From NCBI GenBank assembly GCA_000387965.1, contig APJZ01000007.1, forward strand, positions 7,240-39,239: a DNA stretch of 32,000 nucleotides, in the 5' to 3' direction. The position numbers were made by a program, and so were the translations under genes. The stretch is from Candidatus Nanobsidianus stetteri. Lineage in GTDB: Archaea; Nanobdellota; Nanobdellia; Nanobdellales; Nanobdellaceae. Below are positions 6,108-32,000 of this stretch, piece by piece; within the stretch, counting starts at the first letter, position 1, and every line of letters starts with the position of its first letter. Below the pieces are notes generated by a model that did not search any database, was not told the origin of the DNA, and saw nothing but the letters and a program-made list of their open reading frames with translations.

Positions 6108-6194
6108 CCGTATTTATTTATTTTTCATAATCAAAGATTTAAAAGATCTTTTATTAGTAAAATTTGTAAATACTTTCTTAACTTATTATTATAT

Positions 6195-6851: not shown

Positions 6852-6872
6852 AAAAATATTGTAAAATTTTTA

Positions 6873-6922: not shown

Positions 6923-6929
6923 TATTCTC

Positions 6930-6979
6930 CCCTACCTGGAGGAACTGGTTCATATATCCCCAGTGCATGGCAGGTAGGG
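6930..6979. other. GC-rich nested hairpin (unassigned structured element, possible ncRNA)
   Basis: CCCTACCTG (6930-6938) pairs perfectly with CAGGTAGGG (6971-6979). Inside, ACTGG (6944-6948) pairs with CCAGT (6060+900: 6960-6964) around an 11-nt loop. It is the most GC-rich non-tRNA intergenic stretch in the window and abuts the C/D candidate. Confidence 0.4.
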
Positions 6980-7039
6980 ATAAAATTATAATATTTTTAT
7001 GATTTAAAATTTTTATATCACAAAGTTTTTGAAATATAA

Positions 7040-14031: not shown

Positions 14032-16654
14032 CTTTATTATTTTCTACATAAGGTTTTAAAATTTGGGCCATTAAATTTACGTCTAATTTTCCATTTATTG
14101 ATTTATGTACTGCAACTCCATCTCCTCCATAAACAAATTGTACAATTCTATTATATGCATCTCTAACAGTTAAATCATCATTTACATGAAGGTCATATAA
14201 ACTTAGTACTAATCTTCTATAGAAGTATCCAGATTGAGCAGTTCTTATTGCAGTATCCATTAAAGAGTCTCTACCGGGTAATGCGTGGAAGAACATTTCC
14301 CATGGTTGTAAACCATCTCTAAAAGAACTTATTACCCAACCATAATATTTTGGATGATATATGTTTCTCTCAAATATTGATAAATTCCTCCCTTTATAAC
14401 CAAAGTCTATAAATCTTCCTCTAAATGCCTGAAATCCTAAAGATCCAGCCATTCTAACGGCGTTTTGCCAATCACCTCTTGCACCAGTTATAGACATAAT
14501 ATATGTACCTGTATCTTTTTTCATATATTTTCTAAGAACATCTTGTATTTTTGTAACACTTTCAGATATAGCCTGCATAGATTTTAATTCATATGTTTCC
14601 TGTAAACTTCTACCAGCAATTCTTTCAAGAGTTCCTTCGGTATATTGTTTATATAAATCATTTACTGTTTTTTCTGTATTATCTATTATCTTTTTTATTT
14701 CCTCTTTTGCCTCTTCTGGCAAATCAAAATCAGAAATAGACATTGTAATTCCCAAATTATATTGATAATATATTCCCAATAAACTATATTTTTCTAATAG
14801 ATCATTTACATATTCTTTTCCATACAATTTATATAATATAACAAATAATCTTCCCTTCTCTGCTTTTATTAAACTTGAATCCAAATGCCCTCTAACAATC
14901 ATTCCATTTTCTATCTTTATTTTATCATTTTCAAAATTAAAGTCATCTGGTAAGAATACTGAGGCAATTTCTTTTCCAGTTAAATAATCTCTTCCTTCCT
15001 CTTTTGCTTTTTTAATAATATTAGACAACTTATCTAAATCTTTATCATTAGCGTTTGACATATATATTAACTGTGCAGCTTGATTAATAGGTATTTTTAC
15101 ATCATCTTGTGTTATTAAATACAATCCTGTTATCATTTCTTGTATCATACCAACAATAAAATCTCCATACCTTGGAGTAATATAATTATTTGATATTTCT
15201 GTTAAAAATTCTGCTTCTGCTCTTGCTTCTTCACTTCTTGGTAAGAATACATTCATTTCATCCCCATCAAAATCTGCATTATATGGTTTACATATTATTG
15301 GATTTATCCTAAAGGTATTTCCAGGAAGTATTTTAGCATAATGACCCATCATAGATAATCTATGTAAGGATGGATATCTTAATAATAATACAATATCTCC
15401 ATCCATTAAATGTCTTTCAACAATCCATCCTGGCGCAATCATTGAAGCAAGTGTTTCTTTATTTTCTTCTGTAATTATCCTTTTTCTTCCATCTGGAGAT
15501 ATTACATAATTTGCACCAGGATATTTTTCAGGTCCATTCAATATATATTCCTTCATTTTTTCAATATTCCATTCAGTAACCCTTTCAGGAACTGTCAATA
15601 TTTTTGCAACATATATTGGTATTCCAACCTCATTTGGTTTTATTTTTGTATCTGGAGTAATAACTGCCCTTGAACTATAATTTATTCTCTTTCCGAGCAA
15701 ATATCTCCTAATTATTCCTTCCTTTCCAGAAATTCTTTCAACCAATGATTTTAATGGTTTTCCAGATCTTTGTTGAGCTTTAGGTACATATGGTAAAGTA
15801 TTGTTAAAATATGTAAATATATGATATTGTAATAAATTATATATATCATCTACAATAACTTGTGGGGCTCCTGTTGTTATATCTTCTTTTAATCTTTGAT
15901 TTGTTCTTACAATATCAACTAATTTATGAGTTAAATCATCTTCCGCTCTTTCACCGGTTTCCAAAACTATTGAAGGTCTCATTGTTACTGGAGGTACTGG
16001 TAAAACTGTTAATATCATCCATTCTGGCCTAGAAAATGAAGGATCGAATCCAATTAATGGTAAATCTTCATTTGGTATTTTTTCAAATATTGCTCTAATT
16101 TCAACTGGATACATTCTTCTTTCATTTTCCTTATCCTTAACATAAAAGTAAAATGGTTTTCTAAATTCTACTTTTGGATTTTCATATCCACATACTGGAC
16201 ATTTTGATCTTTTTTTAGCTTTGGAATATACAAACTTAATTATAAATTTATATAATCTATTCCATCTTCTTGAATGTCTATACTTTTCTATCTTATTTAA
16301 TGCAAACTCTCTTTCTTCCTTTGTTAATTTCACATGACCACAATTATGACAAACCGCATTTACCAATTCTCTAACAATTGGTAAAAATTCTGGATGTAAT
16401 ACTGGCCTTGCCAGTTCAATATGACCAAAATGTCCCAAACATTTTCCCGCAGTTTTTCCACATGTTTCACATACATAACTTGGATCTACTACTCCCAATC
16501 TTAAATCCATTAATCCACCCCTTATTGGGGTTCCATCTTCATCATATAACTCTGATACAATTATTTTTGCTGCAGACATTTTTCTTATTGCATCGGGACT
16601 TAATAAAGAATATTGAATTTCAGAAATTCTTTTGAAAAATATATCCTTCATCAT
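13982..16654 (-). CDS. rpoA1: DNA-directed RNA polymerase subunit A'
   Basis: 890 aa with N-terminal zinc motifs (CETCGKTAGKCLGHFGHIEL; CHNCGH), the catalytic YNADFDGDEMNVFLP, and RYPSLHRLSMMGH. Confidence 0.96.
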   Translation of the reverse strand: MMKDIFFKRISEIQYSLLSPDAIRKMSAAKIIVSELYDEDGTPIRGGLMDLRLGVVDPSYVCETCGKTAGKCLGHFGHIELARPVLHPEFLPIVRELVNAVCHNCGHVKLTKEEREFALNKIEKYRHSRRWNRLYKFIIKFVYSKAKKRSKCPVCGYENPKVEFRKPFYFYVKDKENERRMYPVEIRAIFEKIPNEDLPLIGFDPSFSRPEWMILTVLPVPPVTMRPSIVLETGERAEDDLTHKLVDIVRTNQRLKEDITTGAPQVIVDDIYNLLQYHIFTYFNNTLPYVPKAQQRSGKPLKSLVERISGKEGIIRRYLLGKRINYSSRAVITPDTKIKPNEVGIPIYVAKILTVPERVTEWNIEKMKEYILNGPEKYPGANYVISPDGRKRIITEENKETLASMIAPGWIVERHLMDGDIVLLLRYPSLHRLSMMGHYAKILPGNTFRINPIICKPYNADFDGDEMNVFLPRSEEARAEAEFLTEISNNYITPRYGDFIVGMIQEMITGLYLITQDDVKIPINQAAQLIYMSNANDKDLDKLSNIIKKAKEEGRDYLTGKEIASVFLPDDFNFENDKIKIENGMIVRGHLDSSLIKAEKGRLFVILYKLYGKEYVNDLLEKYSLLGIYYQYNLGITMSISDFDLPEEAKEEIKKIIDNTEKTVNDLYKQYTEGTLERIAGRSLQETYELKSMQAISESVTKIQDVLRKYMKKDTGTYIMSITGARGDWQNAVRMAGSLGFQAFRGRFIDFGYKGRNLSIFERNIYHPKYYGWVISSFRDGLQPWEMFFHALPGRDSLMDTAIRTAQSGYFYRRLVLSLYDLHVNDDLTVRDAYNRIVQFVYGGDGVAVHKSINGKLDVNLMAQILKPYVENNKDGTTGKNKKGSRKNRR

Positions 16655-18456
16655 TAAAACTTATAATCCAACTTAAGTTTAGGCCAAATTCCGAGAGAAA
16701 TTAATTCATTTAATAATAAATTGAATGCATAAGAAACTTTAACTTTTGATATTTTTTCAGTTTCACCACAAATAGGACAATAAACTCTATTTCTTATATT
16801 ATCTTCAACAGCAAGAGAACCACATTTTTCACAAACATAAATAGTTGTATCATCAGAAGAATACATTTCTCTTAATAATATAGAAGCACCATGGGCAGCA
16901 AGGACCTCATGTTCCATTTCACTAAATTTCAAACCACCTTTCTTTGATTTACCCTCTGTTGGTTGCCTTGTTAATAATGTAACTGGACCTGTCGCTCTTG
17001 CCTGTAATTTATTCTTTGCCATATGCTTTAATCTTAAATAATAAATGCTTCCAATAAATATTTTAACCTTAAATTCATCCCCAGTTAGAGGATTATATAA
17101 TGTTTCTGTTCCATCTTCTCTAAATCCTAAAGATAACAATTCTTTCCTTAATTCTTCCTCACTTTCTCCATACCATGGTGTTCCGTCAACATATCTTCCA
17201 TTTAAACTTCCAACCTTTCCAGCAAGCAATTCTAATAATAAACCAACAGTTTCTCTTGAAGGAATTCCAGCAGGAGAGAATATTATATCAGGAACAAGAC
17301 CTGAAGATGACCATGGCATATCTGATGGATCAACAATCATCCCCAAAACACCTTTCTGTCCATGTCTTACAGAAAATTTATCTCCAAGTTCTGGGATTCT
17401 TAAGTCTCTTAATTTTATCCTAACAAGTAAATTTCCATCATTAGATTCTGTTATTACAACCCTATCTACCCATCCTTCCTCCCCACTACCAGTAGTTAAT
17501 GAAGAATCTTTCTTTCTTAAACCGGTTGCAATAGATTCAGAAGTTAAACCAATAAATCTGGGAGGTGATATCCTACCAACAAGGACTTCTTCTGGGTTTA
17601 CAAATGATTCGACAGCAACAATTCCGTCCTCTTCCAAATTTTTATATTTATCTTTTCCTCTATATAATTCCACGGAAGGATCTGGAATTGTAATTTCATC
17701 TTGTAATCCTCCAGAATATCTTAATCTTTCTATTTCATAAGATCTAAAATATACAGATCTAAATAAACCCCTATCTATTGAACCTTTATTCATGATAATT
17801 GCATCTTCAATATTATATCCTTCCTGTGTCATTACAGCAACAATTACATTTTGTCCTATTGCATAATCATCCTTAAATATATTAAAAGAAAATGTCCTGG
17901 TAATCGGGTATTGTGGATAATATAAGATTGATATATCAGTATCAAATCTATTATGGAAATTTAAAGAATATATAGCATGAGCCTGTCTCTGTGGTCTAAC
18001 ACCTCTATTTAATCTTGCAGATTGATTTCTATTTGAAAATGGAACCAAAGATGTAGCTATACTAAATATTACTAAAGAAGATAACTCTAAGTGAGTTGTA
18101 TCTTCCTTTATATCTTCAGGATATAATGCAACATTTAAATTTTCTTCTTCTGCAGGATCAACCCATTCAATTATACCTTCCTTTTCTAAATCTGACCATT
18201 TTATTTCTCCTCTCTTTAATTTTTCAATATGCTCTTTTGTTAATAATGGTTTTCCATCTTTTACAACAATTAAAGGTCTTAAAATCCTTCCCTTTCTAGT
18301 TAATATTTCTACAACATTTCTTGTTTCATCAAAATATATGTTTACAAAATATGGAATAATACCCTTTCTTCTTTTTTCCTTAAATTCTTCAATAAATTTA
18401 TTAGCATCATCTACATACCCAACAAAAATATTATCTATATAAACCTCATATGCCAT
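16654..18456 (-). CDS. rpoB1: DNA-directed RNA polymerase subunit B' (C-terminal half of B)
   Basis: 600 aa with ...GDKFSVRHGQKGV..., ...LRLKHMAKNKLQARATGPV..LTRQPTEGKSKKGGLKFSEMEHEVL..HGAS..., and a C-terminal zinc ribbon CEKCGS...CPICGE. Confidence 0.96.
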   Translation of the reverse strand: MAYEVYIDNIFVGYVDDANKFIEEFKEKRRKGIIPYFVNIYFDETRNVVEILTRKGRILRPLIVVKDGKPLLTKEHIEKLKRGEIKWSDLEKEGIIEWVDPAEEENLNVALYPEDIKEDTTHLELSSLVIFSIATSLVPFSNRNQSARLNRGVRPQRQAHAIYSLNFHNRFDTDISILYYPQYPITRTFSFNIFKDDYAIGQNVIVAVMTQEGYNIEDAIIMNKGSIDRGLFRSVYFRSYEIERLRYSGGLQDEITIPDPSVELYRGKDKYKNLEEDGIVAVESFVNPEEVLVGRISPPRFIGLTSESIATGLRKKDSSLTTGSGEEGWVDRVVITESNDGNLLVRIKLRDLRIPELGDKFSVRHGQKGVLGMIVDPSDMPWSSSGLVPDIIFSPAGIPSRETVGLLLELLAGKVGSLNGRYVDGTPWYGESEEELRKELLSLGFREDGTETLYNPLTGDEFKVKIFIGSIYYLRLKHMAKNKLQARATGPVTLLTRQPTEGKSKKGGLKFSEMEHEVLAAHGASILLREMYSSDDTTIYVCEKCGSLAVEDNIRNRVYCPICGETEKISKVKVSYAFNLLLNELISLGIWPKLKLDYKF

Positions 18457-21611: not shown

Positions 21612-21616
21612 AAATA

Positions 21617-21624
21617 TTTATAAA
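21617..21624 (+). promoter_or_regulatory. Candidate BRE/TATA promoter of the surface-protein operon (leaderless start)
   Basis: AAAATA TTTATAAA is centred about 27 nt upstream of the ATG at 21648, which implies a leaderless or near-leaderless mRNA. Similar TATA-like boxes lie 24-30 nt upstream of other first-in-unit genes (3886, 5505, 7040). The chance rate is high in AT-rich DNA. Confidence 0.3.
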
Positions 21625-21647
21625 GAATAAAATGTTTATCCTTAATT

Positions 21648-22409
21648 ATGAAAAGGAGAGGTATAGATATGGCTGTCCAATTAATATTTGTAATAATAAT
21701 AATGCTAGTAGTAGCAGTTATTGTAATTAAGTTATTCCAGCAACAATCGTCAAAGATTAGTCAAATATCAAATACACAAATACAACAGGCAGTTTCTGAT
21801 TGTTCAAGCTATTGTTCAAGCCCATATACATTTTGTACAAAGTATGAAAATATAGGAAATGGGCTTGTAGAAGTAAGTCCTGGATATTATGTTTGTTCAA
21901 ATGCTGTTCCATGTAGTGTAGCATTACAATTATATGGAGGCTCTTCTAGTCAATGCCAATATGAAGGATTTACTATAACACCCCTTGATTGTATGTATCT
22001 AGAATGTCAAAATTATATTGATAATTTATATTATGATCCATTAGCAGCAACAAGTTATGTATTTGGAAATTATTCTTCTACTACATATTTTAATGCAACA
22101 ACTGGACAAGAAAATATACAAATTTCTTCTCCATCTCAAATATTAAATCCAGGTCCAGTACAATGTTCTGCACAATTACCAACATGGATTACAAATCAAG
22201 TATTTGGTGCATTATTAAAGATTATTAACTATTATGATACTGCAGATAATTGTAATTTGAATTTAACAGTTATTAATGGAGCATTAATGGTAACTGGAAA
22301 TTGTACAACATTGGGTATAAATAATAATGTCAATGGAATGCCATTATGTCAATTCTTATTGCAAGTACCATATTCCCAGTTAAATAATATACCAAGTACA
22401 ACAAGCTAA
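21648..22409 (+). CDS. Cys-rich extracellular protein with class-III (prepilin-like) signal candidate
   Basis: 253 aa. The N-terminus MKRRG/IDMAVQLIFVIIIMLVVAVIVI has basic residues, then Gly, then a long hydrophobic helix. There are 12 Cys, many N-x-S/T sequons, and no recognisable enzymatic domain. Confidence 0.7.
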   Translation: MKRRGIDMAVQLIFVIIIMLVVAVIVIKLFQQQSSKISQISNTQIQQAVSDCSSYCSSPYTFCTKYENIGNGLVEVSPGYYVCSNAVPCSVALQLYGGSSSQCQYEGFTITPLDCMYLECQNYIDNLYYDPLAATSYVFGNYSSTTYFNATTGQENIQISSPSQILNPGPVQCSAQLPTWITNQVFGALLKIINYYDTADNCNLNLTVINGALMVTGNCTTLGINNNVNGMPLCQFLLQVPYSQLNNIPSTTS

Positions 22410-22413
22410 TGTA

Positions 22414-24384
22414 ATGAGTTTTTTTGAATATTTTTATAATAACTTCAATTTAATAAAATTAAAAGCTCCTAGTCCAATATATAAAAAATATGCATTTCAT
22501 TTATGGTTAAATAGATTAAATACAAATCCGGATAATATATTTTCTTCTGTAATAACTCTTATAGTATTTTCTATAATCATATATTTCATTTTAAGTTTAG
22601 TAAGCTTTCAATTAGCTTTTTCTTTATTAATATCATTATTAATATTATCATTTTACTTTGCATATTATCCAATATTTTATACACAAGTTGTTAGAATACA
22701 AGTAACATCAGAAATTGTATGGATAATATTATATTTGTCATTATATCTAAAAAGGAATCCAAATTTAGAAAATGGAATAAAATATGTAGCATATTATATG
22801 AAAGGTTATATTGCAACAGACTTTAGATCATTATTATATAATTTGGAAACAAATAAATTTAATGATATTGAATCTGCATTGGAATATTATCAGAGAAGAT
22901 GGTTTTATTTGAGTCCGGATTTCGTATATGCAATGACCCATATTGTAAATATTAAATATAAGAATTCTATTGATGATATAAATAAATTATTAGATAGAAT
23001 TTTGGAATGGGTATTGAAAAAGTCTTTAGAAAAATCTCAAATATATGTAGATGCATTAAAGGAACCAGCAACAGTTATAGTATCTTTCCTAGTAATGATG
23101 CCAATAGTTAGTTTGATGATGTTACCAATAATATCTGTATTTTTATTAAATACTGTAAGTTTCTATTTCATAGCATTTTCATATATAATAATTTTACCAG
23201 TTATTACATTTTTAATAATTCAAAATTTCTTATCAAAAAATCCATTTGCATTTTCTGTTCCAGATTTATCTTTAGCAAGAGATCTACCAAAACCTGGAAA
23301 ATTTAAAATCGGAAATAAAGAAGTTCCAGCAATAATAATTTCAATAATATTAGGATCAATTGCAGTTTTAGGAATATATCATTTAATTTCCCTAGCTATA
23401 AAAATTACATTTATTCCACAGGGATTTTTAAATGATTATTTAAATATAGTTTATCAAGATAGAGCATTAATATATTCTGTTTTAACTTTAACATTACCTT
23501 TAGGATTGGGTTTGGGTATAGGATCTTATTATTATCTAACATCTTTCCAAAAGGTTAAAAAAATATATCAAATTGAAGAAATAGAAAATGAGTTCCCTAT
23601 TGTTGTATATGAATTCGCATCATTATTAGAAGATGGCTATCCATTTGAGATAGTAATTGAAAAAACATATTACAATTATAAAATAATAAAATCTTCAGGG
23701 GTTATGGAAAATTTTCTAAAAACAACATTATATAATTTAAGAAGAGGTTATGATTTAATTACTTCTGTATTCGATCCAAAAATTGGTTCATTAAACTTAT
23801 ATCCATCAAAATTAGTAAGAGAATCAATGCAATTGTTAGTTACTTCTGCATCAAAAGGTCCTGAAGTTTTATCAAAAATTGCATATAATGTATCAACAAA
23901 TTTAGAAAATGTGGATAATATAAGATATAATGTAAGGAAAATATTAAATGAAATAATTGGATTAATAGATATGACATCAAGAAATCTAGTACCATTAATT
24001 TCTGCAATGGTTACGGTTTTTAATAATGGAGTAGTTTCAATGCTTTTTGCACTTGCATATTTCTTTCAATTAATAGACCAATCTTTTGGTTTAGGTGGGG
24101 GATCAAACTTATTCAATTTCGTTGTAAATACATTTAATTTATATAATTTAATACCACCAACATTTTTTGAAGCAATAATCGGTATATTCTTTATAGAATA
24201 TGTAATAATAACCTCATATATGAGTGCTGGAATAAAATATGGATTTGATAGAACAATGACATCATATTATATAGGTAGAAATTTATTATTCGGAACAATA
24301 TTTTATGTAACATTTTCAATAATAGGAATATTAATAGTATATACAGTATTTGGCCCATATTTACCAACAAATATACAATTATGA
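22414..24384 (+). CDS. Polytopic membrane protein, FlaJ/TadC/PilC-like (two T2SSF-type repeats): candidate type IV pilus-like assembly platform
   Basis: 656 aa with two internal repeats of a soluble helical segment followed by TM clusters. Repeat 1 is ...VTSEIVWIILYLSLYLKRNPNLENGIKYVA...DIESALEYYQRRWFYLSPDFVYAMTHIV.... Repeat 2 is ...EFPIVVYEFASLLEDGYPFEIVIEK...LRRGYDLITSVF...YPSKLVRESMQLLVTSASKGPEVLSKIA.... Both resemble the FlaJ/T2SSF pattern (lp..l..la.l..aG....al......G.d...Al....PS..l.e.l..l....sGg.l...L). No Cys. Confidence 0.55.
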   Translation: MSFFEYFYNNFNLIKLKAPSPIYKKYAFHLWLNRLNTNPDNIFSSVITLIVFSIIIYFILSLVSFQLAFSLLISLLILSFYFAYYPIFYTQVVRIQVTSEIVWIILYLSLYLKRNPNLENGIKYVAYYMKGYIATDFRSLLYNLETNKFNDIESALEYYQRRWFYLSPDFVYAMTHIVNIKYKNSIDDINKLLDRILEWVLKKSLEKSQIYVDALKEPATVIVSFLVMMPIVSLMMLPIISVFLLNTVSFYFIAFSYIIILPVITFLIIQNFLSKNPFAFSVPDLSLARDLPKPGKFKIGNKEVPAIIISIILGSIAVLGIYHLISLAIKITFIPQGFLNDYLNIVYQDRALIYSVLTLTLPLGLGLGIGSYYYLTSFQKVKKIYQIEEIENEFPIVVYEFASLLEDGYPFEIVIEKTYYNYKIIKSSGVMENFLKTTLYNLRRGYDLITSVFDPKIGSLNLYPSKLVRESMQLLVTSASKGPEVLSKIAYNVSTNLENVDNIRYNVRKILNEIIGLIDMTSRNLVPLISAMVTVFNNGVVSMLFALAYFFQLIDQSFGLGGGSNLFNFVVNTFNLYNLIPPTFFEAIIGIFFIEYVIITSYMSAGIKYGFDRTMTSYYIGRNLLFGTIFYVTFSIIGILIVYTVFGPYLPTNIQL

Positions 24385-24665
24385 AATTACAACAATCAGT
24401 ATATTGGATTATAATAACTTTTATATTAATTATAGCTGCTGGTCTATTTTCTTTTTATTATATTTATAATGTAAAAAATAATTTAAGTGGAAATAATATA
24501 CAAACAATTAATTGCCAACAGTTGGAAAATTTATATAATAAAAGTTTTCAGGAAATAATTAATATTAAAGTATTTCTTAATGAAAATTGTACAATAAATG
24601 GAATAACAATACCTGCTGGCTATAGAATTATATATATTTATAACGGAAGTATTAATTATATATGA
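24381..24665 (+). CDS. Small pilin-like protein 1 (N-terminal hydrophobic helix plus small 2-Cys domain)
   Basis: 94 aa, MKLQQSVYWIIITFILIIAAGLFSFYYIY... The ATGA start/stop overlaps the upstream gene. The C-terminus is beta-strand-like (YRIIYIYNGSINYI). Confidence 0.65.
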   Translation: MKLQQSVYWIIITFILIIAAGLFSFYYIYNVKNNLSGNNIQTINCQQLENLYNKSFQEIINIKVFLNENCTINGITIPAGYRIIYIYNGSINYI

Positions 24666-25141
24666 AAAATGATATAGCAATAGATACTGTATTTATTATC
24701 ATAATAGCAATAATATCTGTTGCAGTTATATTAGATATTATTTACACAAAATTCTTTTACAATTCTCAAGCATATTATTGTCAATCATTAATATCACAAG
24801 GTGGTTTTTCTCCATCATGTGAAAAATATTATCCTTCAGCAATAAATATTATATATACGAATGAAAGTAAGGATACAATTTATTCAGATATAACAGGATT
24901 GATATTAAATTGCTACAATAATAATGTAAATACAAATAAATTATTTAACATATGTTATGATATTTATATAGATGAAAATATTACTCTACATTCATCAACA
25001 TTAATTCAATACATACAAACTTATACTTCATTTAATCCAAATAATGTTATATTTCATTTAAATAATAGTGATGGAAATATTTATCCATACAATAGTATAT
25101 TTATAATATACAACAATAGTTATATTGTAATATGGCAATAA
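24662..25141 (+). CDS. Small pilin-like protein 2 (N-terminal helix plus 4-Cys domain)
   Basis: 159 aa, MKNDIA/IDTVFIIIIAIISVAVIL..., with ATGA overlap. It has 4 Cys, including a ..NCY..(13)..ICY.. pattern shared with the next gene. Confidence 0.65.
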   Translation: MKNDIAIDTVFIIIIAIISVAVILDIIYTKFFYNSQAYYCQSLISQGGFSPSCEKYYPSAINIIYTNESKDTIYSDITGLILNCYNNNVNTNKLFNICYDIYIDENITLHSSTLIQYIQTYTSFNPNNVIFHLNNSDGNIYPYNSIFIIYNNSYIVIWQ

Positions 25142-25545
25142 AGTCTCAAGAACTTCCAATTAATTATACCTTCTTAATAATTATAGGAATAATTGTTGTA
25201 TCAGTAATTACTGGAATAATATTTTTATTAAAAGGAAATATAACTTCTTATATTAGTAATACAATACCTAAATATAATAATACGCAAACTGTAGTAGAAA
25301 CAAATGTAAGTTCAGTACAAGATGTTGCAATGGATGTTGTAGCATGTTATTATAAAAAAGCGCAGGGTCTTTGTTATTTAATTAATTATCAAGGATCTCC
25401 ATTTACATGTCAAGATTTAATAAACAATGTAAGTAGTATAGATCCAAACGTAGTAATGCAAAATTGCAATTATAATATAAATCCTGGAGAATATATATTA
25501 GTATATTCGGCAGGAAATTATGTTTATATTAATGTTCAAGGATAA
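25132..25545 (+). CDS. Small pilin-like protein 3 (N-terminal helix plus 4-Cys domain)
   Basis: 137 aa, MAIKSQELPINYTFLIIIGIIVVSVITGIIFLL... It overlaps the upstream gene by 10 nt and has 4 Cys (..VACYYKKAQGLCYLINY..). Confidence 0.65.
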   Translation: MAIKSQELPINYTFLIIIGIIVVSVITGIIFLLKGNITSYISNTIPKYNNTQTVVETNVSSVQDVAMDVVACYYKKAQGLCYLINYQGSPFTCQDLINNVSSIDPNVVMQNCNYNINPGEYILVYSAGNYVYINVQG

Positions 25546-25547
25546 AA

Positions 25548-25988
25548 ATGGAAAAGTGGTTTTGGATAATTGTAACAATTATTGCATTTGGTTTATCTTT
25601 ATATTTATATTTTAAATTTTCCAGTATAAATAATCAGACTCAATTATTATATCAGGATATATCTTCATGCCAAAATTTATATACAACCATTGAAAAAGTA
25701 TGTTATTCAAACAATGGAACGGAATTGTATATTAATATTGAAATAAATAAGTATTTAAATTATATATATGCTAATAATAATTTATTAAGTTGCTATATAT
25801 ATAATGAATATTATAATTATACAATACCATGTAATGTAATAATAAATACAGCAAATAATATGATTCAATATTATACTTCCGGACTATTTTATGAATTATC
25901 ATATGGATATCCAAATGAAAAAATTCCATTACTTGTTGAAAAAACTTCTCCAACAGAAGTAACAATTTATATAGAAAATCCAAGTTAA
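25548..25988 (+). CDS. Small pilin-like protein 4 (N-terminal helix plus 4-Cys domain)
   Basis: 146 aa, MEKWFWIIVTIIAFGLSLYLYF... It starts 2 nt after the upstream stop and has 4 Cys. Confidence 0.65.
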   Translation: MEKWFWIIVTIIAFGLSLYLYFKFSSINNQTQLLYQDISSCQNLYTTIEKVCYSNNGTELYINIEINKYLNYIYANNNLLSCYIYNEYYNYTIPCNVIINTANNMIQYYTSGLFYELSYGYPNEKIPLLVEKTSPTEVTIYIENPS

Positions 25989-26024
25989 AACATTTTTAAA
26001 ATTTTTAAATATTATTAGATCATA

Positions 26025-27524
26025 ATGAAAAGATATCAATTAAATTTACTTTCAGTAGCAATAATATTGGTAATTATATCTTTAGCTTTTATAATATATT
26101 ATCAATATTCTATGAATGTTAAAGAACAACAAGAAAATTTAATATTTGAAAATTTTATTAATAACTTACAAAATTTAGAAAATACAATAAATAGTATTCA
26201 AGGTACATATTATATAAAAGTCAATATACCAAATGGAATTATATTATATGCAAATGGCCCAAAATTAATAATACAATATAATAATAATAATTATACAATT
26301 GATTTTCAAAACAAGACAGTAGTTTTATATAATAATAATCAAAATGTGAACTTTTTATATCCAAATAATCATATATATATTGTTAGTACAAATAATACTA
26401 TTTTTGTTACAACAAATCTTCAAAATTCAATTACAATATTAAATGAATATCTATCAAATGGAAATCTTGTATATATAAATCCTGAAAACATAAATAACAA
26501 TAATGAAGGAAATAATCAAGGAAATAACAATAATAATATTAACCAAAATGTTCAATGCTTATTTCAATATAATGGACAAGCAAACTTTTTCTGGGGTGAT
26601 GTAAATGGAAATAATTATTTACCTCCAATAGGAGATCAGGGAGAATGTGGAGATTGTTGGGCTTTTGCATCTGCAAATGGAATTGCTTCAATATATATGA
26701 TAAGAAATAATCAACCAAATGATGGATTACAATTATCCCCAGCATATTTAGCAATAGAGTGCAATAATGGATATCCAAACACTCCAAATTATTGTAATTC
26801 CAATGAAGGTTGTACTGGTGGTGTTGTATATCCTGCTCTATTATTTACATCTCAATATGGAATTCCACCTGATCAAGGATGGAACTATTATAATTCTACT
26901 TTAGCTAACTGTTTAGAAAATAATAATCAAAATTATCCTGGTGATGTATGTAATTACAATTATAATGGACCTAACTCTCCATTATATTATTCGCAAGGTG
27001 TTATATTTCTTACACAAAATGGACCTTTAACAGATCAACAAGTAATTCAAGATTTATTATGTTATGGACCATTAGTAGCTGCCGGATTTCTAGGAGGTAG
27101 TGGTGGATCAAATCCAAATATAAATCCTCAACAACCAATACTTAATACAGGACATGCTATGTTATTAGTTGGTTATACCACTAGCAATACTATATATTCC
27201 CAACTATGTCAAGAAGTATATGAAACCCCTAATTGTTGGATATTTGAGAATCAATGGGGAGATAATTCAGCTTGTATAGTTCTTACTACAAGCGGAGTAC
27301 CAGTACCTGGACCAAACAACCCTAATCAGTGTGGTGAATTATATCAAAATTATCAGGATTGTAATAATTATCTACAATTGGTTCTTAAAGTACCCGGAGT
27401 ATCATGTGGAGGTGTGTATTGGATGCAAGATGGATATTTGCTTGTACCATTCGATCAATCCTCATATGGCCAAACATTTCCATACTATATAGTTGCAATT
27501 CAAAATGTCACTCTCGCACAATAA
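26025..27524 (+). CDS. Papain-family (C1) cysteine peptidase with N-terminal hydrophobic helix, pilin-like module and Asn-rich linker
   Basis: 499 aa. Catalytic motifs are GDQGECGDCWAFASANG (Gln plus Cys211, codon at 26655-26657), GCTGGVVYPALLFTSQYGIP, NTGHAMLLVGY (His377, 27153-27155) and CWIFENQWGDN (Asn409). N-terminus MKRYQLNLLSVAIILVIISLAFII. Linker NINNNNEGNNQGNNNNNINQN is at 26487-26549. There are 15 Cys. Confidence 0.85.
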   Translation: MKRYQLNLLSVAIILVIISLAFIIYYQYSMNVKEQQENLIFENFINNLQNLENTINSIQGTYYIKVNIPNGIILYANGPKLIIQYNNNNYTIDFQNKTVVLYNNNQNVNFLYPNNHIYIVSTNNTIFVTTNLQNSITILNEYLSNGNLVYINPENINNNNEGNNQGNNNNNINQNVQCLFQYNGQANFFWGDVNGNNYLPPIGDQGECGDCWAFASANGIASIYMIRNNQPNDGLQLSPAYLAIECNNGYPNTPNYCNSNEGCTGGVVYPALLFTSQYGIPPDQGWNYYNSTLANCLENNNQNYPGDVCNYNYNGPNSPLYYSQGVIFLTQNGPLTDQQVIQDLLCYGPLVAAGFLGGSGGSNPNINPQQPILNTGHAMLLVGYTTSNTIYSQLCQEVYETPNCWIFENQWGDNSACIVLTTSGVPVPGPNNPNQCGELYQNYQDCNNYLQLVLKVPGVSCGGVYWMQDGYLLVPFDQSSYGQTFPYYIVAIQNVTLAQ

Positions 27525-28332
27525 ATATTTAATAGCATTATCTATTCTCTTTTTCATAATTTTATCTTACAATATATATTCTATGAGGAATCCATTTGCA
27601 GTTTATTGCGAATATGGTGGAGGAACATATTATATAAATAGTACAGGATCTTATTGTATTGTAAATGGTACATATTTTAATGCTCTACAATATTATGAGA
27701 ATAATGTGCCTCCCCAATATTCTTTCTGTGCCCATTATGGATTAATATATGTAAATAACAGTTATTGTGAATATCCAAATGGAACATTAGTTAGTCCATA
27801 TACATTAATCCCTCCATCAACATATCAAGACCTAATTTTACCTACACCACCTATATTATGTAATAGTTTATTAAATTGTTCAAATACTCCTTGGTATTAT
27901 CAACCATGTTCAAATCAAATCTATCCATGCTTTAATCCTCCATATATACCCCAATCTTACTTAACAGGTAATACTTCTTATCAAACTCTTTTATCTACAT
28001 ATCAACAAGAATATCAATGTGGGTATTGTCCAGAAAACTTATCATTTGAAGGAGATTGGTTTAGATGTCCATATAATTATTCATTAAATCAGTTATATCA
28101 AGAATTTCTAAAACAATGTCCACCACCAAATATTGTTTATATATCATGTACAGGAGTATTTGAATGCGTAAATCAGACTGAAATAAATTTAACAAATAAT
28201 ACACAGCAATTAATTTATCCACAACCAAATATAAGTAATAAAAGTAATAATGTTAATTTAATTTTACCAATAGCAATAGTAATAGTAATAATTATAATAG
28301 GCCTAGTTATTCTTTTATATTATCTAAAATGA
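27505..28332 (+). CDS. Cys-rich protein with DUF333-like ('putative hemolysin') module, N-terminal helix and C-terminal TM anchor
   Basis: The ORF track starts at a TTG (27493); the ATG at 27505 (MSLSHNKYLIALSILFFIILSY...) is preferred. NPFAVYCEYGGGTYYINSTGSYCIVNGTYFNALQYY matches the DUF333 pattern NP[AS]..YC...GG.........G..C....G.....W/Y..Y. A second, weaker repeat is FCAHYGLIYVNNSYCEYPNGT. There are 14 Cys. The C-terminus is NVNLILPIAIVIVIIIIGLVILLYYLK*. Confidence 0.6.
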   Translation: MSLSHNKYLIALSILFFIILSYNIYSMRNPFAVYCEYGGGTYYINSTGSYCIVNGTYFNALQYYENNVPPQYSFCAHYGLIYVNNSYCEYPNGTLVSPYTLIPPSTYQDLILPTPPILCNSLLNCSNTPWYYQPCSNQIYPCFNPPYIPQSYLTGNTSYQTLLSTYQQEYQCGYCPENLSFEGDWFRCPYNYSLNQLYQEFLKQCPPPNIVYISCTGVFECVNQTEINLTNNTQQLIYPQPNISNKSNNVNLILPIAIVIVIIIIGLVILLYYLK

Positions 28333-29942
28333 AAAATCAGATAAATACATTAGCATTTGTTATTATTATTTCAATAATAATTTTATTAATTGTTTTAGTT
28401 TATCTTTTATCAACTAGTTCTAGTTCTAAAATAACACAAACATATAATGTAGAAAACCAATATACATTAACAATTCAAAATAGCGTTGATTTATTACCTT
28501 ATATTTATGATAATAAAGTTAATTTATCCTATGCATTTTTATTATCATATTTTTCATCTTCTGGAAATGATACATATTGTATAAATCAAAATACATGTAC
28601 AAACATATCGGAAGATTTAATAAATTACTTTGACAGTATATATGGAAATAGATGGAATTTAACTATATATTTTATCCCACCAGTAACTGGATGGGTTGTT
28701 CAGATGTTTATAATAGGTGGTAATATTGGAAATTGGGATCCGTGTTCAATGAATCCTCCCCCAGATCCCAATGGTACGCAATGGTATGAATGGAATTACA
28801 CATATTTCTTTGTAGATAATTATACAGAAAATATTAATCTACCGAATGTATACAATCCAATTACTAATACGCCAATAAGTCAAACCTTATATGGAGCAGG
28901 ATGGGTAAATGCAACAGCACCTTTTCATCAGTCTAATTCAATAAGTTCTTGGGGATTACCAACATTATATAATAACCTGGATCAATCTCAGGCAATACAA
29001 ACAGGTTTCTGTACACCATTAACAAAAATATTTCCAAATTATAATTTTACAGAAGCTTCTGTATATTGCCCTCAAGGTAAATGGAATCTATTTCCAAATT
29101 TTGGAACTTCGCCAACTTCTTCATTACCACAATTTTTCTCTGGTTGGATAGGAATTGGAACTCCAGTAGCAGGCTCTCAATATTTAACAGATGTTGGTTA
29201 CTATTATTATGGACCTCCAACATATAAAACAGCTACTGATATAAATAGATTAGCAGAATTTATAATCCCACAACAATATTTAGATAAAATATGCCAAGAA
29301 GAATTTGGTACTCAGCAATGCGGGAGTCAAGAATTGATTGTTGGGTCATTTTATAGAGGTGTAGTAAATATACCACCAAATTGTCAGCAAGTATTTATAG
29401 ATTATCCCTGGCATGAAGTAATAAGATTATATATTTCATTTTTGAATAAGAGCGGAGAACCAGATTATGTATTTTTAGCGGCAGATCCTCTATGTGAATA
29501 TAATTTAAATGGAAAATTAATAGATTGTCCAACTGGTGTATTTGATAATATACAAAATGTAAATGGAATTATTGTTGGAAAAGACTGTCCTCTAGTTTAT
29601 TTAATGGATCAAAATTCATATGCCGAAGGATTGTATAGATTTAATATTACTAAATGGGTAATAGATGATAGAGATTCAAATACAAATCAATTTATAATTT
29701 CTGCAGTATATTATGATCCTCATAATGGAGGAAATGGAGTTGCAATGGCAAGAGTATATTGTATTACAAATACTGGAAATAAAGAAGAATTAAACGCATA
29801 TATTTATCAAGGTAATGAAGAAAGTATAAATCTAGGATATCCAATACCTCCGAATACAAATATATATGTTTATTATATATATTTACCAGTAGATGTATCA
29901 TTCTTGGGCGGATATTTAGTTGCTAAATTAACAGTATGGTAA
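28329..29942 (+). CDS. Large extracellular protein, N-terminally anchored, no recognisable domain
   Basis: 537 aa, MKNQINTLAFVIIISIIILLIVLVYLLSTSSSS..., with ATGA overlap. It has 12 Cys, many sequons, and is rich in W/Y/N/P/G. Confidence 0.7.
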   Translation: MKNQINTLAFVIIISIIILLIVLVYLLSTSSSSKITQTYNVENQYTLTIQNSVDLLPYIYDNKVNLSYAFLLSYFSSSGNDTYCINQNTCTNISEDLINYFDSIYGNRWNLTIYFIPPVTGWVVQMFIIGGNIGNWDPCSMNPPPDPNGTQWYEWNYTYFFVDNYTENINLPNVYNPITNTPISQTLYGAGWVNATAPFHQSNSISSWGLPTLYNNLDQSQAIQTGFCTPLTKIFPNYNFTEASVYCPQGKWNLFPNFGTSPTSSLPQFFSGWIGIGTPVAGSQYLTDVGYYYYGPPTYKTATDINRLAEFIIPQQYLDKICQEEFGTQQCGSQELIVGSFYRGVVNIPPNCQQVFIDYPWHEVIRLYISFLNKSGEPDYVFLAADPLCEYNLNGKLIDCPTGVFDNIQNVNGIIVGKDCPLVYLMDQNSYAEGLYRFNITKWVIDDRDSNTNQFIISAVYYDPHNGGNGVAMARVYCITNTGNKEELNAYIYQGNEESINLGYPIPPNTNIYVYYIYLPVDVSFLGGYLVAKLTVW

Positions 29943-31144
29943 AAAAAGAAGATAAGATTTTATTTCTTATATATTTAATTTTGTTTTTACTTTTTATTTA
30001 TATTAGCAACTTTAATATTAATATAATTATCTTTGGTACAATATATTTATTCTTATTGTCCTTTATATTAAAAAATTCGAAGAATACATCTTTAATATAC
30101 AAATTAACATTTTTATATATACCAATTGGGATTTTTGGAATTTATACCAATCTACCTTTACCATTTCCATTTCCGTCAATATTTACTTATGTAGTAAATT
30201 ATTGGATATTTTATTTTATAGCATTTTCTTTAGGATATTATCTATTTGAAAACAACTTTTATATTTCAAAAAAATCTCTAATATTCTATATAATTTCTAT
30301 AATTTTATATATAATATTATTTTTCTTTGAATTAATATATAATTCTGTAACTACAGATTTAGATGTATCAGTGGGAAATATAATAATTTTATTTCTTATC
30401 TTTGTCTCTCTATATCTATATATTTTCAAAATAATATATTCATCTCTATTTATAATATTTGCCATATTCTTATTTCTAGTTGCATATTTTAATAGCAATG
30501 AAATATTAATAGTAAAAACAAAAATATATGAAAAGATATCAAAAATATATAAATACAAAAAGTATATATTTCTGTTAATATTTCTTATAATAATATTACA
30601 GATTATCATTGCTATAAACAAATTATTATTGTATAATGGTTTAATTATAGAAAGTTCAACTGGAAAATATATTATCTACGAATATGAATCTCTAATATTT
30701 TTATCTATATACGAATTTATAATTTACTTTTTAGTTTATAGAAATTTAAGATATAATAATTATACAAGTTATTTCTTACTTTTTACTATGGTTTTAATAA
30801 TATTTTTTGGAGAACTATATTTATCAAATGTAGATTTTACTTCTGCAGCTTTACATACTAGATATCTAATAGCTATGCTATTTTTCTTTATGGGTATACA
30901 CCATAAAATATATAAAAATAGTAAAAGAGTAATTACAAAAGCTCTAGGTATTTCTATTGGTATTTTAATCTTGTTACAAAATATAACTGGAGAATTCCTT
31001 GAATCAGTATTGTTTGGAGGACCAAGTAGTATACATTTAGTATCTATACCAAATATATTAATAGCACTCGGAATTATACATGGATTAGTAACGCCAATTC
31101 TTATATTAACATTTATATATTTACATATTAAATTAAAAATATGA
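29936..31144 (+). CDS. Hypothetical polytopic membrane protein (about 10 or more hydrophobic segments), Cys-free
   Basis: 402 aa, overlapping the upstream gene by 7 nt (ATGGTAA). Extremely I/L/F/Y-rich. No Cys and no GxGD motif. Two pairs of His spaced 15 residues apart lie in the C-terminal third. Confidence 0.7.
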   Translation: MVKKEDKILFLIYLILFLLFIYISNFNINIIIFGTIYLFLLSFILKNSKNTSLIYKLTFLYIPIGIFGIYTNLPLPFPFPSIFTYVVNYWIFYFIAFSLGYYLFENNFYISKKSLIFYIISIILYIILFFFELIYNSVTTDLDVSVGNIIILFLIFVSLYLYIFKIIYSSLFIIFAIFLFLVAYFNSNEILIVKTKIYEKISKIYKYKKYIFLLIFLIIILQIIIAINKLLLYNGLIIESSTGKYIIYEYESLIFLSIYEFIIYFLVYRNLRYNNYTSYFLLFTMVLIIFFGELYLSNVDFTSAALHTRYLIAMLFFFMGIHHKIYKNSKRVITKALGISIGILILLQNITGEFLESVLFGGPSSIHLVSIPNILIALGIIHGLVTPILILTFIYLHIKLKI

Positions 31145-31731
31145 GAAATCAAACAGAAATTATTTATGTAGTTTTATTTCTAACAATTGCTATATTAATA
31201 ATCCTTCTATCTTTCTATGCATTGACATATAATTATAATCAAAATATTGTTTTTAATAGATTCACTTCTTTATCTACACTATCAAACTATTTTTTGGGAT
31301 ATTTACAAACATTATTAACACAGGAAAGTTATGCAGAATCATATTTAGCTGGAACAAATGGATGGGGAAAAGAAAATTGGGCTTCTTATCCTTACGGATG
31401 TATATTACCTCAATCATGTCAAAATGCAATTCAATATTATAATAACTTGCTAACTTCTGGATATCAAACTTTATTAACTTTTGGAGAACAATATTTAACT
31501 GCATATCAATATTATTATCCTTATAATGTATCTTTCAATTTTTCAAATAATTATCAGGCAGGAATCTTCGGAGATTGTAATAATATAATTTCCGGAGAAT
31601 ATAATTATAATTTTCCTGTCTATGTTCAAGGATTATATATAAATATTACTGGACCTTCTTCAGGTTCAATAATTCCATATGCAAGTACATCAAATATAAC
31701 AAACAATCCCGCATTCTATTTATTTAACTAA
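31141..31731 (+). CDS. N-terminally anchored extracellular protein, hypothetical
   Basis: 196 aa, MRNQTEIIYVVLFLTIAILIILLSFYALTY..., with ATGA overlap. Y/N/Q-rich with 3 Cys. Confidence 0.65.
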   Translation: MRNQTEIIYVVLFLTIAILIILLSFYALTYNYNQNIVFNRFTSLSTLSNYFLGYLQTLLTQESYAESYLAGTNGWGKENWASYPYGCILPQSCQNAIQYYNNLLTSGYQTLLTFGEQYLTAYQYYYPYNVSFNFSNNYQAGIFGDCNNIISGEYNYNFPVYVQGLYINITGPSSGSIIPYASTSNITNNPAFYLFN

Positions 31732-32000
31732 TCAATCATCAATAATTGGAATAGCGGTTGCAACAAATGTAATAAGTTTATATGTTGGACAAGAATATAA
31801 ATATTCTGTCTTAATAAAAAATCTAGTACCAGCAGATATTCAATGTTCTTTAGTACCAACTCCATCAACTACAAACGATAAAGCAATTGTTACAAATTAT
31901 AGTATAAATGGAATAGTTAGCAATGAATTTACTATAGGTCCTTATGGATCTGCAGAATTAGATATAAATATTTTAGGATCTTCCAGTGGTGTAAGTAGTT
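31730..32000 (+). CDS. Further open reading frame of the operon with no canonical start codon; continues past the window end
   Basis: Hand translation in the +1 frame relative to the upstream gene is open from 31700 to 32000 (about 100 codons without a stop in very AT-rich DNA). It reads ..YLTNQSSIIGIAVATNVISLYVGQEYKYSVLIKNLVPADIQCSLVPTPSTTNDKAIVTNYSINGIVSNEFTIGPYGSAELDINILGSSSGVSS. There is no in-frame ATG, GTG or TTG anywhere in it, so the start coordinate is uncertain. Confidence 0.45.

Follow-up and report, generated by a model that had tools for sequence, protein, structure and literature searches.

Cultured Nanobdellota (YN1, YN4 and Nanobdella aerobiophila) attach to their hosts via a large organelle that comprises a cone, a portal and a filament of 6.6-8.2 nm. 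No part of this organelle has a gene assigned to it. The diameter of the filament is in the range of type IV pili (T4P), and the filament displaces the host S-layer. Unlike an extracellular pilus, however, it is reported to run between two cytoplasms. The authors who described YN4 list T4P genes only as scattered hits. A census of archaeal T4P found secretion ATPases of subclade 4F in nanoarchaea, but neither pilins nor a prepilin peptidase (Makarova, Koonin and Albers, 2016).

Subclade 4F, with its halobacterial loci of an arCOG01818 ATPase and an arCOG01814 TadC (Makarova, Koonin and Albers, 2016), shares several features with the locus described here: a platform protein with about 9 transmembrane (TM) segments and two T2SSF domains whose N. 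acidilobi orthologue is listed under arCOG01814, a platform gene followed by several small pilin-family genes, and, in distant DPANN homologues, a long ATPase gene kept directly upstream. In contrast to subclade 4F systems, the present locus has no ATPase, and TadC is duplicated, with the other copy retaining the ATPase. Its pilin-like proteins match no 4F pilin arCOG by name and have K-[N/S]-Q leaders, and a papain fusion and two polytopic orphans are present in addition. The minor-pilin tips of bacterial T4P and type II secretion systems (T2SS; PilY1/PilC, GspK-type) likewise combine non-identical small pilin-like proteins with large pilin-anchored ones, and the ultrasmall episymbiotic Saccharibacteria use such a T4P set for host contact according to the literature. 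However, no sequence or fold relationship was detected between these tip complexes and the cluster proteins.

Euryarchaeal Epd/Tad-like pili, which are built from EppA substrates such as Methanococcus maripaludis EpdE, resemble the cluster in their short basic leader, in a Gln as first residue of the predicted mature protein, in the long hydrophobic helix, and in that several different minor pilins are encoded together. Epd pilins have Gly at position -1 and require a dedicated A24 peptidase, EppA. The cluster proteins instead mostly carry Asn or Ser at this position, and the lineage has no recognised A24 peptidase.

We analysed a window of 32,000 nucleotides from Candidatus Nanobsidianus stetteri, and we consider it probable that one region of it encodes the pilin-and-platform half of a T4P-like (Tad/subclade-4F-type) system specific to Nanopusillaceae. 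The initial annotation of the window had stated that no characterised system has this composition. This still holds for the composition, but the kind of system is known, as arCOG01814 is the TadC of subclade 4F and a FlaJ/TadC homologue of Nanoarchaeota had been flagged in the literature before. With a platform, one canonical pilin, seven pilin-like proteins of non-canonical type and a tethered protease, the cluster constitutes a conserved candidate set and thus supplies candidate genes for how tiny symbiotic hot-spring archaea grip or breach their hosts. Since cultivable strains carry the set, the question of host attachment becomes testable.

Operon structure and conservation in Nanopusillaceae

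Eleven genes, designated W1 to W11, occupy positions 21648-31731 of the forward strand at a coding density of about 100%. They overlap or lie at most 4 nt apart, with the exception of a single 36-nt gap. Start and stop codons overlap as ATGA at 24381, 24662, 28329 and 31141 and as ATGGTAA at 29936, and the other junctions are a 4-nt gap (22410-22413), a 10-nt overlap at 25132 and a 2-nt gap (25546-25547). Rereading of the sequence bore out the coordinates, strand and junctions of the initially annotated ORFs, and the view that the source is a reduced, AT-rich archaeal genome was also supported. The number of N-terminally anchored proteins had been put at at least nine. We count eight in the window, excluding W8, whose signal is of the Sec type and whose TM segment lies at the C-terminus, so that it is not N-terminally anchored. 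The exported proteins contain 12, 2, 4, 4, 4, 15, 14 and 12 cysteines, and the polytopic proteins none.

Two stretches may have promoter function. The leader upstream of W1 (21612-21647, +) contains a TATA-like TTTATAAA some 25 nt ahead of the ATG and possibly holds the operon promoter. The sole real intergenic gap (36 nt, 25989-26024, +) contains a TATA-like TTTTTAAATA and possibly holds an internal one. At about 75% A+T, TATA-like matches are expected by chance in both.

Gene order is kept in six Nanopusillaceae genomes, including those of the cultured YN1 and of N. acidilobi, whose published gene table shows the same arrangement. The five loci other than the one in the window contain the same genes in the same order, next to the same rpoH/RimK/DUF371 neighbours, with 36-97% protein identity. 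Given this conservation of gene order and neighbours in relatives, the cluster is no chance run of AT-rich ORFs. The complete cluster in relatives has 13 genes, with a Cys-rich protein of 215 residues and another polytopic paralogue encoded beyond those seen here. Comparison with phage and virus families (PHROGs) yielded no match, except for W10, which matched a family of unknown function at E = 0.0056.

The genes 3' of the 36-nt gap evolve about twice as fast as those 5' of it. The platform W2 equals RNA polymerase in conservation while the distal exported proteins evolve fast, a pattern to be expected of a core machine that bears host-facing parts. An alternative is a decaying or functionally unlinked neighbourhood, in which the TadC paralogue would be a remnant after ATPase loss and the downstream genes would encode unrelated, fast-evolving surface proteins. 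In its favour, the ATPase has been lost from the locus, 0 of the 13 cluster products were detected in the published N. acidilobi proteome, in which flanking gene products were detected, and rearrangements and domain losses have occurred (the C1 domain is absent from locus L007, and there is a breakpoint at 31725). However, W2 is 71-78% identical across the family and free of frameshifts, with a conservation comparable to that of RpoB. Moreover, even deeply diverged loci keep the gene order and the start/stop overlaps, the Cys positions of W1 and W4 are all invariant, and the shared N-terminal motif described below is maintained. We regard decay as very improbable.

The platform protein and the secretion ATPases

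W2 (22414-24384, +) is a protein of 656 residues with about 9 TM segments. It matched no Pfam family at E <= 1 and no NCBIfam family either. Its full-length homologues P0010, P0012 and P0013 (E = 3.7e-59 to 2.7e-52, 95-98% query coverage), however, scored 36.6, 31.0 and 26.5 bits against PF00482 (T2SSF; gathering cutoff 25.2). Each has two PF00482 stretches, and the best match falls in the first domain (153-281) or in the second (433-570). In W2, hydrophobic blocks at residues 39-89, 214-370 and 528-652 are separated by two soluble regions, and the family profile matched the cytoplasmic domain of GspF/EpsF (E = 0.0086). In N. acidilobi the orthologue is Nps_00520, which is listed under arCOG01814 (TadC, T4P subclade 4F). 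Judged from its homologues, W2 is a divergent double-T2SSF platform of the TadC/FlaJ family with two predicted cytoplasmic T2SSF domains. The FlaJ/TadC/PilC-like assignment first made for 22414-24384 is thereby borne out, by way of full-length homologues that pass the PF00482 threshold.

No ATPase homologue is encoded in the window or within 10 kb on either side of the six Nanopusillaceae loci. Prepilin peptidase and archaellum genes are likewise missing from the window, as initially noted, and from 10 kb around the cluster in relatives, and FlaB/F/G/H/I/J are absent among the window's proteins. This contrasts with distant DPANN relatives. In four of four such loci (L003, L009, L011 and L012), a T2SSE ATPase gene directly precedes and overlaps the platform gene, which is itself followed by series of small proteins that contain Cys and bear canonical KRG↓Q or KKG↓ signals (arrows mark predicted class III cleavage sites). 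ATPase and platform are also paired in 28 of the 54 metagenomic ATPase loci that could be judged.

According to published tables, secretion ATPases are encoded elsewhere in these genomes (five in Nst1). In N. acidilobi, a second arCOG01814 TadC is paired with an arCOG01818 ATPase, and the archaellum genes lie at Nps_00925-00940. Of the two partners for which the initial annotation had pointed to the rest of the genome, an ATPase is thus listed. For the other, the literature reports that no A24 prepilin peptidase is recognised in nanoarchaea.

Pilin-like N-termini and their possible roles

W1 (21648-22409, +) is a pilin-like protein of 253 residues that starts with the class III signal MKRRG↓IDMAVQLIF... 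All orthologues share MK[RK]R[G/S/A]↓[IV][DE]MAV followed by a hydrophobic helix, with G, S or A at position -1, and all 12 cysteines are invariant across them. The initial impression of a Cys-rich protein with a class-III-like signal was correct, and the signal (KRRG↓IDMAV) is canonical. A W1 profile matched a class III pilin-like protein from an ATPase-platform locus of Woesearchaeota (E = 3.9e-6). The AF2 model of W1 (pLDDT 70) has an N-terminal helix (residues 3-38) and matched no PDB fold. We consider W1 a candidate for the major subunit.

JGI named a W1 orthologue 'type II secretory pathway pseudopilin PulG'. This name would suit a T2SS-like pseudopilus, in which a small pilin-like piston exports or positions the large Cys-rich proteins and the protease, instead of an adhesive pilus. 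Several different small pilin-like proteins are encoded beside large exported ones, including the Sec-type W8, and the protease is a plausible secreted payload. However, archaea have no outer membrane and no secretin, so that a T2SS piston would have no obvious role. The protease and the large proteins also bear the same pilin-type N-terminus and therefore resemble subunits rather than cargo. Taken together, we find a pseudopilus improbable.

Four small proteins, all encoded on the forward strand, follow the platform. W3 (24381-24665, 94 aa, 2 Cys) is pilin-like and starts with MKLQQ here and with MK[NS]Q in relatives, followed by a hydrophobic helix. W4 (24662-25141, 159 aa) is pilin-like, begins with MKNDIA↓IDT... 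and has 4 invariant cysteines. W5 (25132-25545, 137 aa, 4 Cys) is also pilin-like and contains ..IKSQELP.. near its start. W6 (25548-25988, 146 aa, 4 Cys) is N-terminally anchored and lacks the K-x-Q motif. The four had been taken for paralogues, but W3 has no detectable homology to W4-W6, and the small proteins are not detectably paralogous.

A [KR]-[N/S/x]-Q start followed by a helix of at least 20 hydrophobic residues is common to most of the anchored proteins other than W1. The combination of [KR][NS]Q and helix is exclusive to cluster genes, which account for six of six matches both in YN1 and in L007. The KSQEL of W5 aligns with KRGQEL of a canonical class III protein in L009, and the Q of the motif aligns with the +1 Q of the canonical KRG↓Q proteins of that locus, placing mostly Asn or Ser at -1. 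To our knowledge, N at this position is not a class III cleavage residue of PibD/FlaK substrates. If the K-[N/S]-Q leaders are truly processed, this would imply a prepilin peptidase of a novel type or less strict rules of cleavage.

The initial annotation had also pointed to archaeal pilin models and to structure prediction of the small proteins. In HMM searches, pilin and archaellin profiles matched none of the window's products and none of 39 orthologues. The confident AF2 model of W4 (pLDDT 83.6) has a 43-residue N-terminal helix (3-45) and an alpha/beta head. Its outline is the lollipop of a pilin, but the head matched no solved pilin. It had no significant match in the PDB (best E = 0.9) and looks beta-alpha-beta, in contrast to the antiparallel sheet or beta-sandwich of known pilins.

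The heads of the W1 and W4 models, which match no solved pilin, bring up a membrane-anchored surface complex without a filament, in which single-pass proteins, retained in the membrane by signal anchors that are not cleaved, would form a fixed extracellular assembly (for example part of the portal or cone) and the ATPase-less TadC paralogue, W10 and W13 would act as a membrane scaffold. Such an assembly would also fit the locus without ATPase, the lineage without a recognised prepilin peptidase, W6 without the motif, the C-terminally anchored W8, the two conserved, lineage-specific polytopic proteins W10 and W13, and the existence of an attachment organelle to which genes have yet to be assigned. 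However, the canonical class III site of W1, with G, S or A at -1, would be purposeless in an uncleaved anchor, the platform is strongly constrained, and homologous loci elsewhere are standard ATPase-platform-pilin operons. The non-detection of the products in the proteome additionally makes it less likely that they build an abundant structural lattice like the cone. Overall, a fixed complex seems unlikely to us.

The tethered protease and the distal genes

W7 (26025-27524, +) consists of an anchor module (residues 1-140, MKRYQ and helix), an N-rich linker and a papain (Peptidase_C1) domain at about residues 186-499. Residues 197-414 matched PF00112 at E = 1.8e-17 (64.6 bits, cutoff 20.7), three W7 orthologues matched it as well (best E = 3.7e-18), and 61 papain-family sequences of the PDB match W7. 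The region of the catalytic Gln and Cys, DQGECGDCWAFAS, aligned to NQGRCGSCWAFAS of ananain, with QGECGDCWAF opposite QGRCGSCWAF. The His motif (GHAMLLVGY) and the Asn-x-Trp motif (ENQWG) were assigned by motif and not by alignment. The papain protease in the fusion proposed at the outset is confirmed by the above-threshold PF00112 match, its anchor module is pilin-like, and, with the active-site motif intact, the enzyme looks active. We know of no described pilin with a papain-family payload.

The papain domain is fused to different anchor modules in different genomes. The N-terminal module of W7 is a stand-alone gene in YN1 and L007, and the C1 domain is joined to a W6-like module in YN1 and absent from L007. 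Both this exchange of anchor modules on the protease and the rapid change of the distal genes would fit a role in host specificity.

Returning to the T4P-like system that we favour, W2 would be the membrane platform, and the main polymerising subunit would most plausibly be W1. W3, W4, W5, W7, W9 and W11, together with W12 in relatives, would be accessory pilin-like substrates, inserted via a very short K-[N/S/G/A]-Q/I leader and a long hydrophobic helix. Each would present a disulfide-bonded extracellular domain, with the papain protease of W7 tethered by its N-rich, flexible linker. Extraction of the helices from the membrane, to give a short filament or a pseudopilus, would be driven by a secretion ATPase from another part of the genome, possibly the arCOG01818 protein that pairs with the second arCOG01814 TadC or an arCOG01817 protein that stands alone. 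Where the cell meets its crenarchaeal host, which is walled by a protein S-layer, the filament may expose the protease and adhesive domains, and so may serve attachment or host remodelling.

A doubtful extension of this model is that the cluster encodes the working parts of the Nanobdellota attachment organelle that lie outside the cell. W1 would then form the filament of about 6-8 nm, extruded via the portal by the ATPase-less TadC paralogue and tipped by pilin-anchored Cys-rich adhesins and a papain protease that cuts the S-layer of the host, and the K-[N/S]-Q leaders would be cut by a non-A24 peptidase or left uncut. YN1, which has the organelle, carries the cluster in the same order, a purely circumstantial link. 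If true, this reading would explain archaella and pili in a lineage without a recognisable prepilin peptidase.

W8 (27505-28332, +) is an exported Cys-rich protein (275 aa, 14 Cys) with a Sec-type signal, an N-terminal DUF333-like motif and a C-terminal TM anchor. Its ATG at 27505 agrees with the starts of its orthologues. The likeness to DUF333 (PF03891) noted initially is real as regards the motif, which was matched by four of seven family members (best E = 1.3e-4). W8 itself remained below threshold (E = 0.02; 15.6 bits, cutoff 25), with an alignment to no more than positions 1-23 of the 47 in the profile, and is not a demonstrated member of the family. A shorter W8 paralogue is present in YN1 and L007.

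W9 (28329-29942, +; 537 aa) is Cys-rich with a predicted pilin-like anchor (MKNQ and helix) and had no match in Pfam, NCBIfam, PDB-profile or PHROG searches. W10 (29936-31144, +; 402 aa) is Cys-free and, by hydrophobicity, polytopic with about 10-13 TM segments, as expected from the earlier description of a second polytopic membrane protein. No match was found in PDB or Pfam, and only 7 representatives of W10 are present among 1.84 billion proteins. Its paralogue W13 (about 350 aa, 28-30% identity) lies at the far end of the cluster in relatives. E260, H322 and H397 are invariant in W10/W13, and there is no invariant Asp.

The last gene of the cluster in the window encodes an MRNQ-anchored module of 196 residues (W11N, 31141-31731, +). 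Its counterpart in relatives is the N-terminal half of a protein of 409-439 residues, the C-terminal half of which holds about 20 cysteines. Homology breaks at about 31725, and an open frame without a start codon (31700-32000, +), shifted by +1 relative to W11 and unrelated to the relatives' C-terminal domain, continues to the end of the window. This stretch represents either a module replacement, a rearrangement breakpoint or an assembly join. The numbering of the Nst1 orthologues likewise breaks between W10 and W11.

The gene cluster and its conservation

The cluster consists of eleven forward-strand ORFs (products W1 to W11, 21648-31731) with a coding density of about 100%, as described in the initial annotation. 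The junctions agree exactly with that annotation. Neighbouring ORFs overlap at ATGA in four places, at ATGGTAA in one, and by 10 nt and 20 nt in two others; the gaps measure 4, 2 and, in a single case, 36 nt. An identical gene set in identical order follows rpoH, RimK and DUF371 in five more Nanopusillaceae loci (L005, L006, L007, L010, and L008 from strain YN1), with protein identities of 36-97%. The published N. acidilobi gene table contains the same series (Nps_00525 to Nps_00465). This conservation indicates that the cluster is not an artefact of AT-rich sequence (G+C content of the window, about 25%). A viral or mobile origin was rejected after a PHROGs search of the window products, which gave no significant match.

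In the five loci and in N. acidilobi, the complete cluster has 13 genes, with W11 followed on its 3' side by a 215-aa protein with 8 cysteines (W12) and then by a second polytopic protein (W13). In the window, homology to the close relatives L005 and L006 ends abruptly at about position 31725, at the stop codon of W11 (31141-31731). An open +1 frame without start codon and without Pfam match (31700-32000) extends for 300 nt after this stop, and is unrelated to the Cys-rich C-terminal half present in all relatives. A simple frameshift in W11 was ruled out, because homology stops outright. In the published table, Nst1 orthologue numbers jump from Nst1_646 (W10) to Nst1_658 (W11), suggesting a real inversion or module replacement and not an assembly error.

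Conservation differs between parts of the cluster. At the distance of YN1, the platform protein W2 matches RNA polymerase subunit B in conservation (77-78% versus 80-86% identity). The other products encoded 5' of the 36-nt gap (W1, W3-W6) are 60-72% identical, similar to RimK and DUF371, and those encoded 3' of it (W7-W11) only 41-57%. In public data, W1 forms 37 clusters at 90% identity, versus 8 close relatives (at least 54% identity) for the platform. This pattern fits a conserved core with variable, host-facing parts. [quoted passage not shown]

Platform, anchored proteins and distal products

The initial annotation had proposed a T2SSF platform for W2 (656 aa, 22414-24384). Neither Pfam nor NCBIfam gave a direct match, so that this assignment needed a check of its own, which it withstood. 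Over its full length, W2 is homologous to DPANN proteins (E = 1e-52 to 1e-59, 95-98% coverage) that score above the T2SSF gathering threshold, with two T2SSF-matched stretches in each. These map to two soluble regions of W2 between hydrophobic blocks. Among PDB entries, the family profile matched GspF/EpsF (cytoplasmic domain, E = 0.0086). The N. acidilobi orthologue is listed under arCOG01814, defined in the archaeal type IV pilus (T4P) census as TadC of subclade 4F. W2 shares 96% identity with proteins from Nanoarchaeota/Candidatus Nanopusillus MAGs and 77% with YN1_4460 of strain YN1, a cultured member of the Nanobdellota. A Candidatus Nanobsidianus stetteri (Nst1) protein belongs to the 90%-identity cluster of the best match.

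The class III-like signal noted for W1 was found throughout its family, as MK[RK]R[G/S/A]|[IV][DE]MAV, which leads into a long hydrophobic helix. The -1 residue is always small and 12 cysteines are invariant. In comparisons between cluster protein families, made with hmmsearch, the W1 profile matched a canonical pilin-like protein of a Woesearchaeota locus (E = 3.9e-6), and one W1 orthologue was named 'pseudopilin PulG' by JGI; the profile had no significant match among PDB sequences. The start of W4 (MKNDIA|IDT) is similar to the G|IDM of W1. The N-termini of W3, W5, W7, W9, W11 and W12 share the pattern [KR]-[N/S/x]-Q, followed by at least 20 hydrophobic residues, and all six ORFs with this start pattern, in YN1 as in L007, are cluster genes. 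KSQEL of W5 aligned with KRGQEL of a canonical protein of the Woesearchaeota locus L009. The motif was not found in W6. With a mixed-family profile, the families of W1 and W4 were detected, but not W5 or W9. Cysteine counts of the exported proteins are mostly even, and the three polytopic proteins have none. W8 (27505-28332) has an N-terminal motif that is DUF333-like but below threshold, and instead of an N-terminal anchor it has a Sec-type signal and a C-terminal anchor.

The predicted papain fusion was borne out in W7 (26025-27524), which contains a Peptidase_C1 domain (64.6 bits). Its QGxCGxCWAF motif aligned with the active site of ananain, and GHAxxxVGY and NxWG motifs are also present. 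YN1 and L007 encode the N-terminal module of 140 residues as a gene of its own. The YN1 protease is fused to the W6-like module instead, L007 lacks the protease, and the arrangement in L010 and N. acidilobi is like that of the window. Thus, the protease is tethered in every case, though to different membrane-anchor modules.

W9 (28329-29942), W10 (29936-31144), W11 and W12 had no match in Pfam, NCBIfam or PDB-sequence profiles, and no significant match in PHROGs. An exhaustive search of 1.84 billion proteins yielded seven lineage-restricted representatives of the W10 family, and transitive annotation of W10 was therefore not possible. W10 and the second polytopic protein (20748-21818 in L006) are Cys-free paralogues with 28-30% identity that bracket the distal part of the cluster. 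Glu260, His322 and His397 are invariant in both. No aspartate is, so that a divergent A24 peptidase is not favoured. One idea is that the paralogues are putative pilin-modifying enzymes, for example GT-C or Wzy-like pilin glycosyltransferases.

ATPase, prepilin peptidase and proposed function

In agreement with the initial annotation, no secretion ATPase, A24 peptidase or archaellum gene was found in the window. An ATPase was also not detected within 10 kb of the platform in any Nanopusillaceae locus, and W1 occupies the position 5' of the platform in all of them. In four distant DPANN loci (L003, L009, L011, L012), the platform is only about 27% identical to W2. There, the gene for a 757-772-aa T2SSE ATPase overlaps the platform gene start, and the platform is followed by genes for six to ten small proteins that contain cysteines and carry canonical archaeal class III signals (e.g. 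KRG|QELS, KRG|QIEM, KKG|ISEY). Among metagenomic loci of the 4F-type ATPase with enough downstream sequence, a platform was detectable directly 3' of the ATPase in 28 of 54. The order ATPase, platform, pilins is therefore ancestral, and in Nanopusillaceae the ATPase was lost from the locus or moved elsewhere. When metagenomes were scanned with the 4F-type ATPase, 80 DPANN loci were obtained, none of them from Nanopusillaceae, and the partner ATPase was not located.

Some of these loci had further features. The ATPase of the L012 T4P locus (6283-10032, 1249 aa) carries an intein with LAGLIDADG homing endonuclease, flanked by two extein halves according to tblastn. In L003, an IS605 OrfB/Cas12f-like TnpB gene (15893-17041) interrupts the run of pilin-like genes. 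A platform homologue with 29% identity (L093, contig CAZJBU010000013.1, 459-2402) stands alone on a DPANN contig of 31.6% G+C, with no ATPase or pilin-like genes beside it, and TadC uncoupling is therefore not unique to Nanopusillaceae. The homologue P0009 was rejected as a second Nanopusillaceae TadC, because its upstream gene is not an ATPase and its contig has 31.6% GC.

Published tables list three clade-2, one archaellar and one clade-4 secretion ATPase for Nst1. For N. acidilobi they list four arCOG01817 entries, including FlaI and a solo VirB11-like gene, and a second arCOG01814 TadC (Nps_02245) adjoining an arCOG01818 ATPase (Nps_02250) that was detected in the proteome. We infer that the window cluster is the obvious candidate for the missing pilins of the nanoarchaeal 4F system.

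The best-supported reading, which we consider probable, is a T4P-like system, of which the window cluster would encode the pilin-and-platform half and another locus the ATPase. This reading is weakened by the non-pilin heads, the unusual -1 residues and the missing peptidase (the N. acidilobi table has no prepilin-peptidase arCOG entry and signal peptidase I only). It is also weakened by the absence of all cluster products (0 of 13 detected) from the N. acidilobi proteome. The main alternative, a non-polymerising membrane-anchored surface complex with the TadC paralogue and the polytopic orphans as scaffold, appears unlikely. The operon described in the initial annotation stands, and its interpretation there is supported in part. 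The system is a variant of a known T4P-like kind with a 4F-type TadC rather than a machine of an entirely new category.

YN1, YN4 and N. aerobiophila possess an organelle with cone, portal and a filament of 6.6-8.2 nm by which the host S-layer is displaced; no gene assignments exist for this organelle. YN1 carries the cluster, and a protease is the lytic enzyme appropriate to a protein S-layer. The tie between cluster and organelle is circumstantial, and we regard it as doubtful. This uncharacterised gene set contributes candidates to an open question of DPANN biology. Convergent genes at the ends of two T4P-like operons, in L011 (18346-20355, reverse strand) and L012 (21312-22046, reverse strand), encode large proteins with peptidoglycan-hydrolase domains (Peptidase_M23 in L011, Peptidase_M15_4 and SLT in L012). 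For walls of the bacterial type, these proteins may correspond to the papain protease of Nanopusillaceae.

Genes upstream of the cluster

The housekeeping genes 5' of the cluster encode FtsZ, Spt5, L11, L1, L10, S7, arginine decarboxylase, cytochrome bd subunit I, the rpoH-rpoB-rpoA operon, RimK and DUF371. The L1/L10 ribosomal genes are separated from the cytochrome bd genes by a segment (5490-7879) with an AbiEii/DUF6036-like nucleotidyltransferase (5490-6107), an ORF without family (6195-6851) and a tyrosine integrase (7040-7879), which could represent a small integrated element or a toxin-antitoxin island of this strongly reduced genome. On the reverse strand (7871-10125), the gene for cytochrome bd oxidase subunit I (E = 7.5e-86) precedes a 298-aa ORF without Pfam match, where subunit II would be expected. 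The Nanoarchaeota cytochrome bd-I oxidase was flagged for high non-synonymous SNP density (Jarett et al., 2018). A 271-aa reverse-strand ORF without Pfam family (11317-12132) lies between the genes for ribosomal S12 and S7, which is unusual, as these two are normally closely paired.
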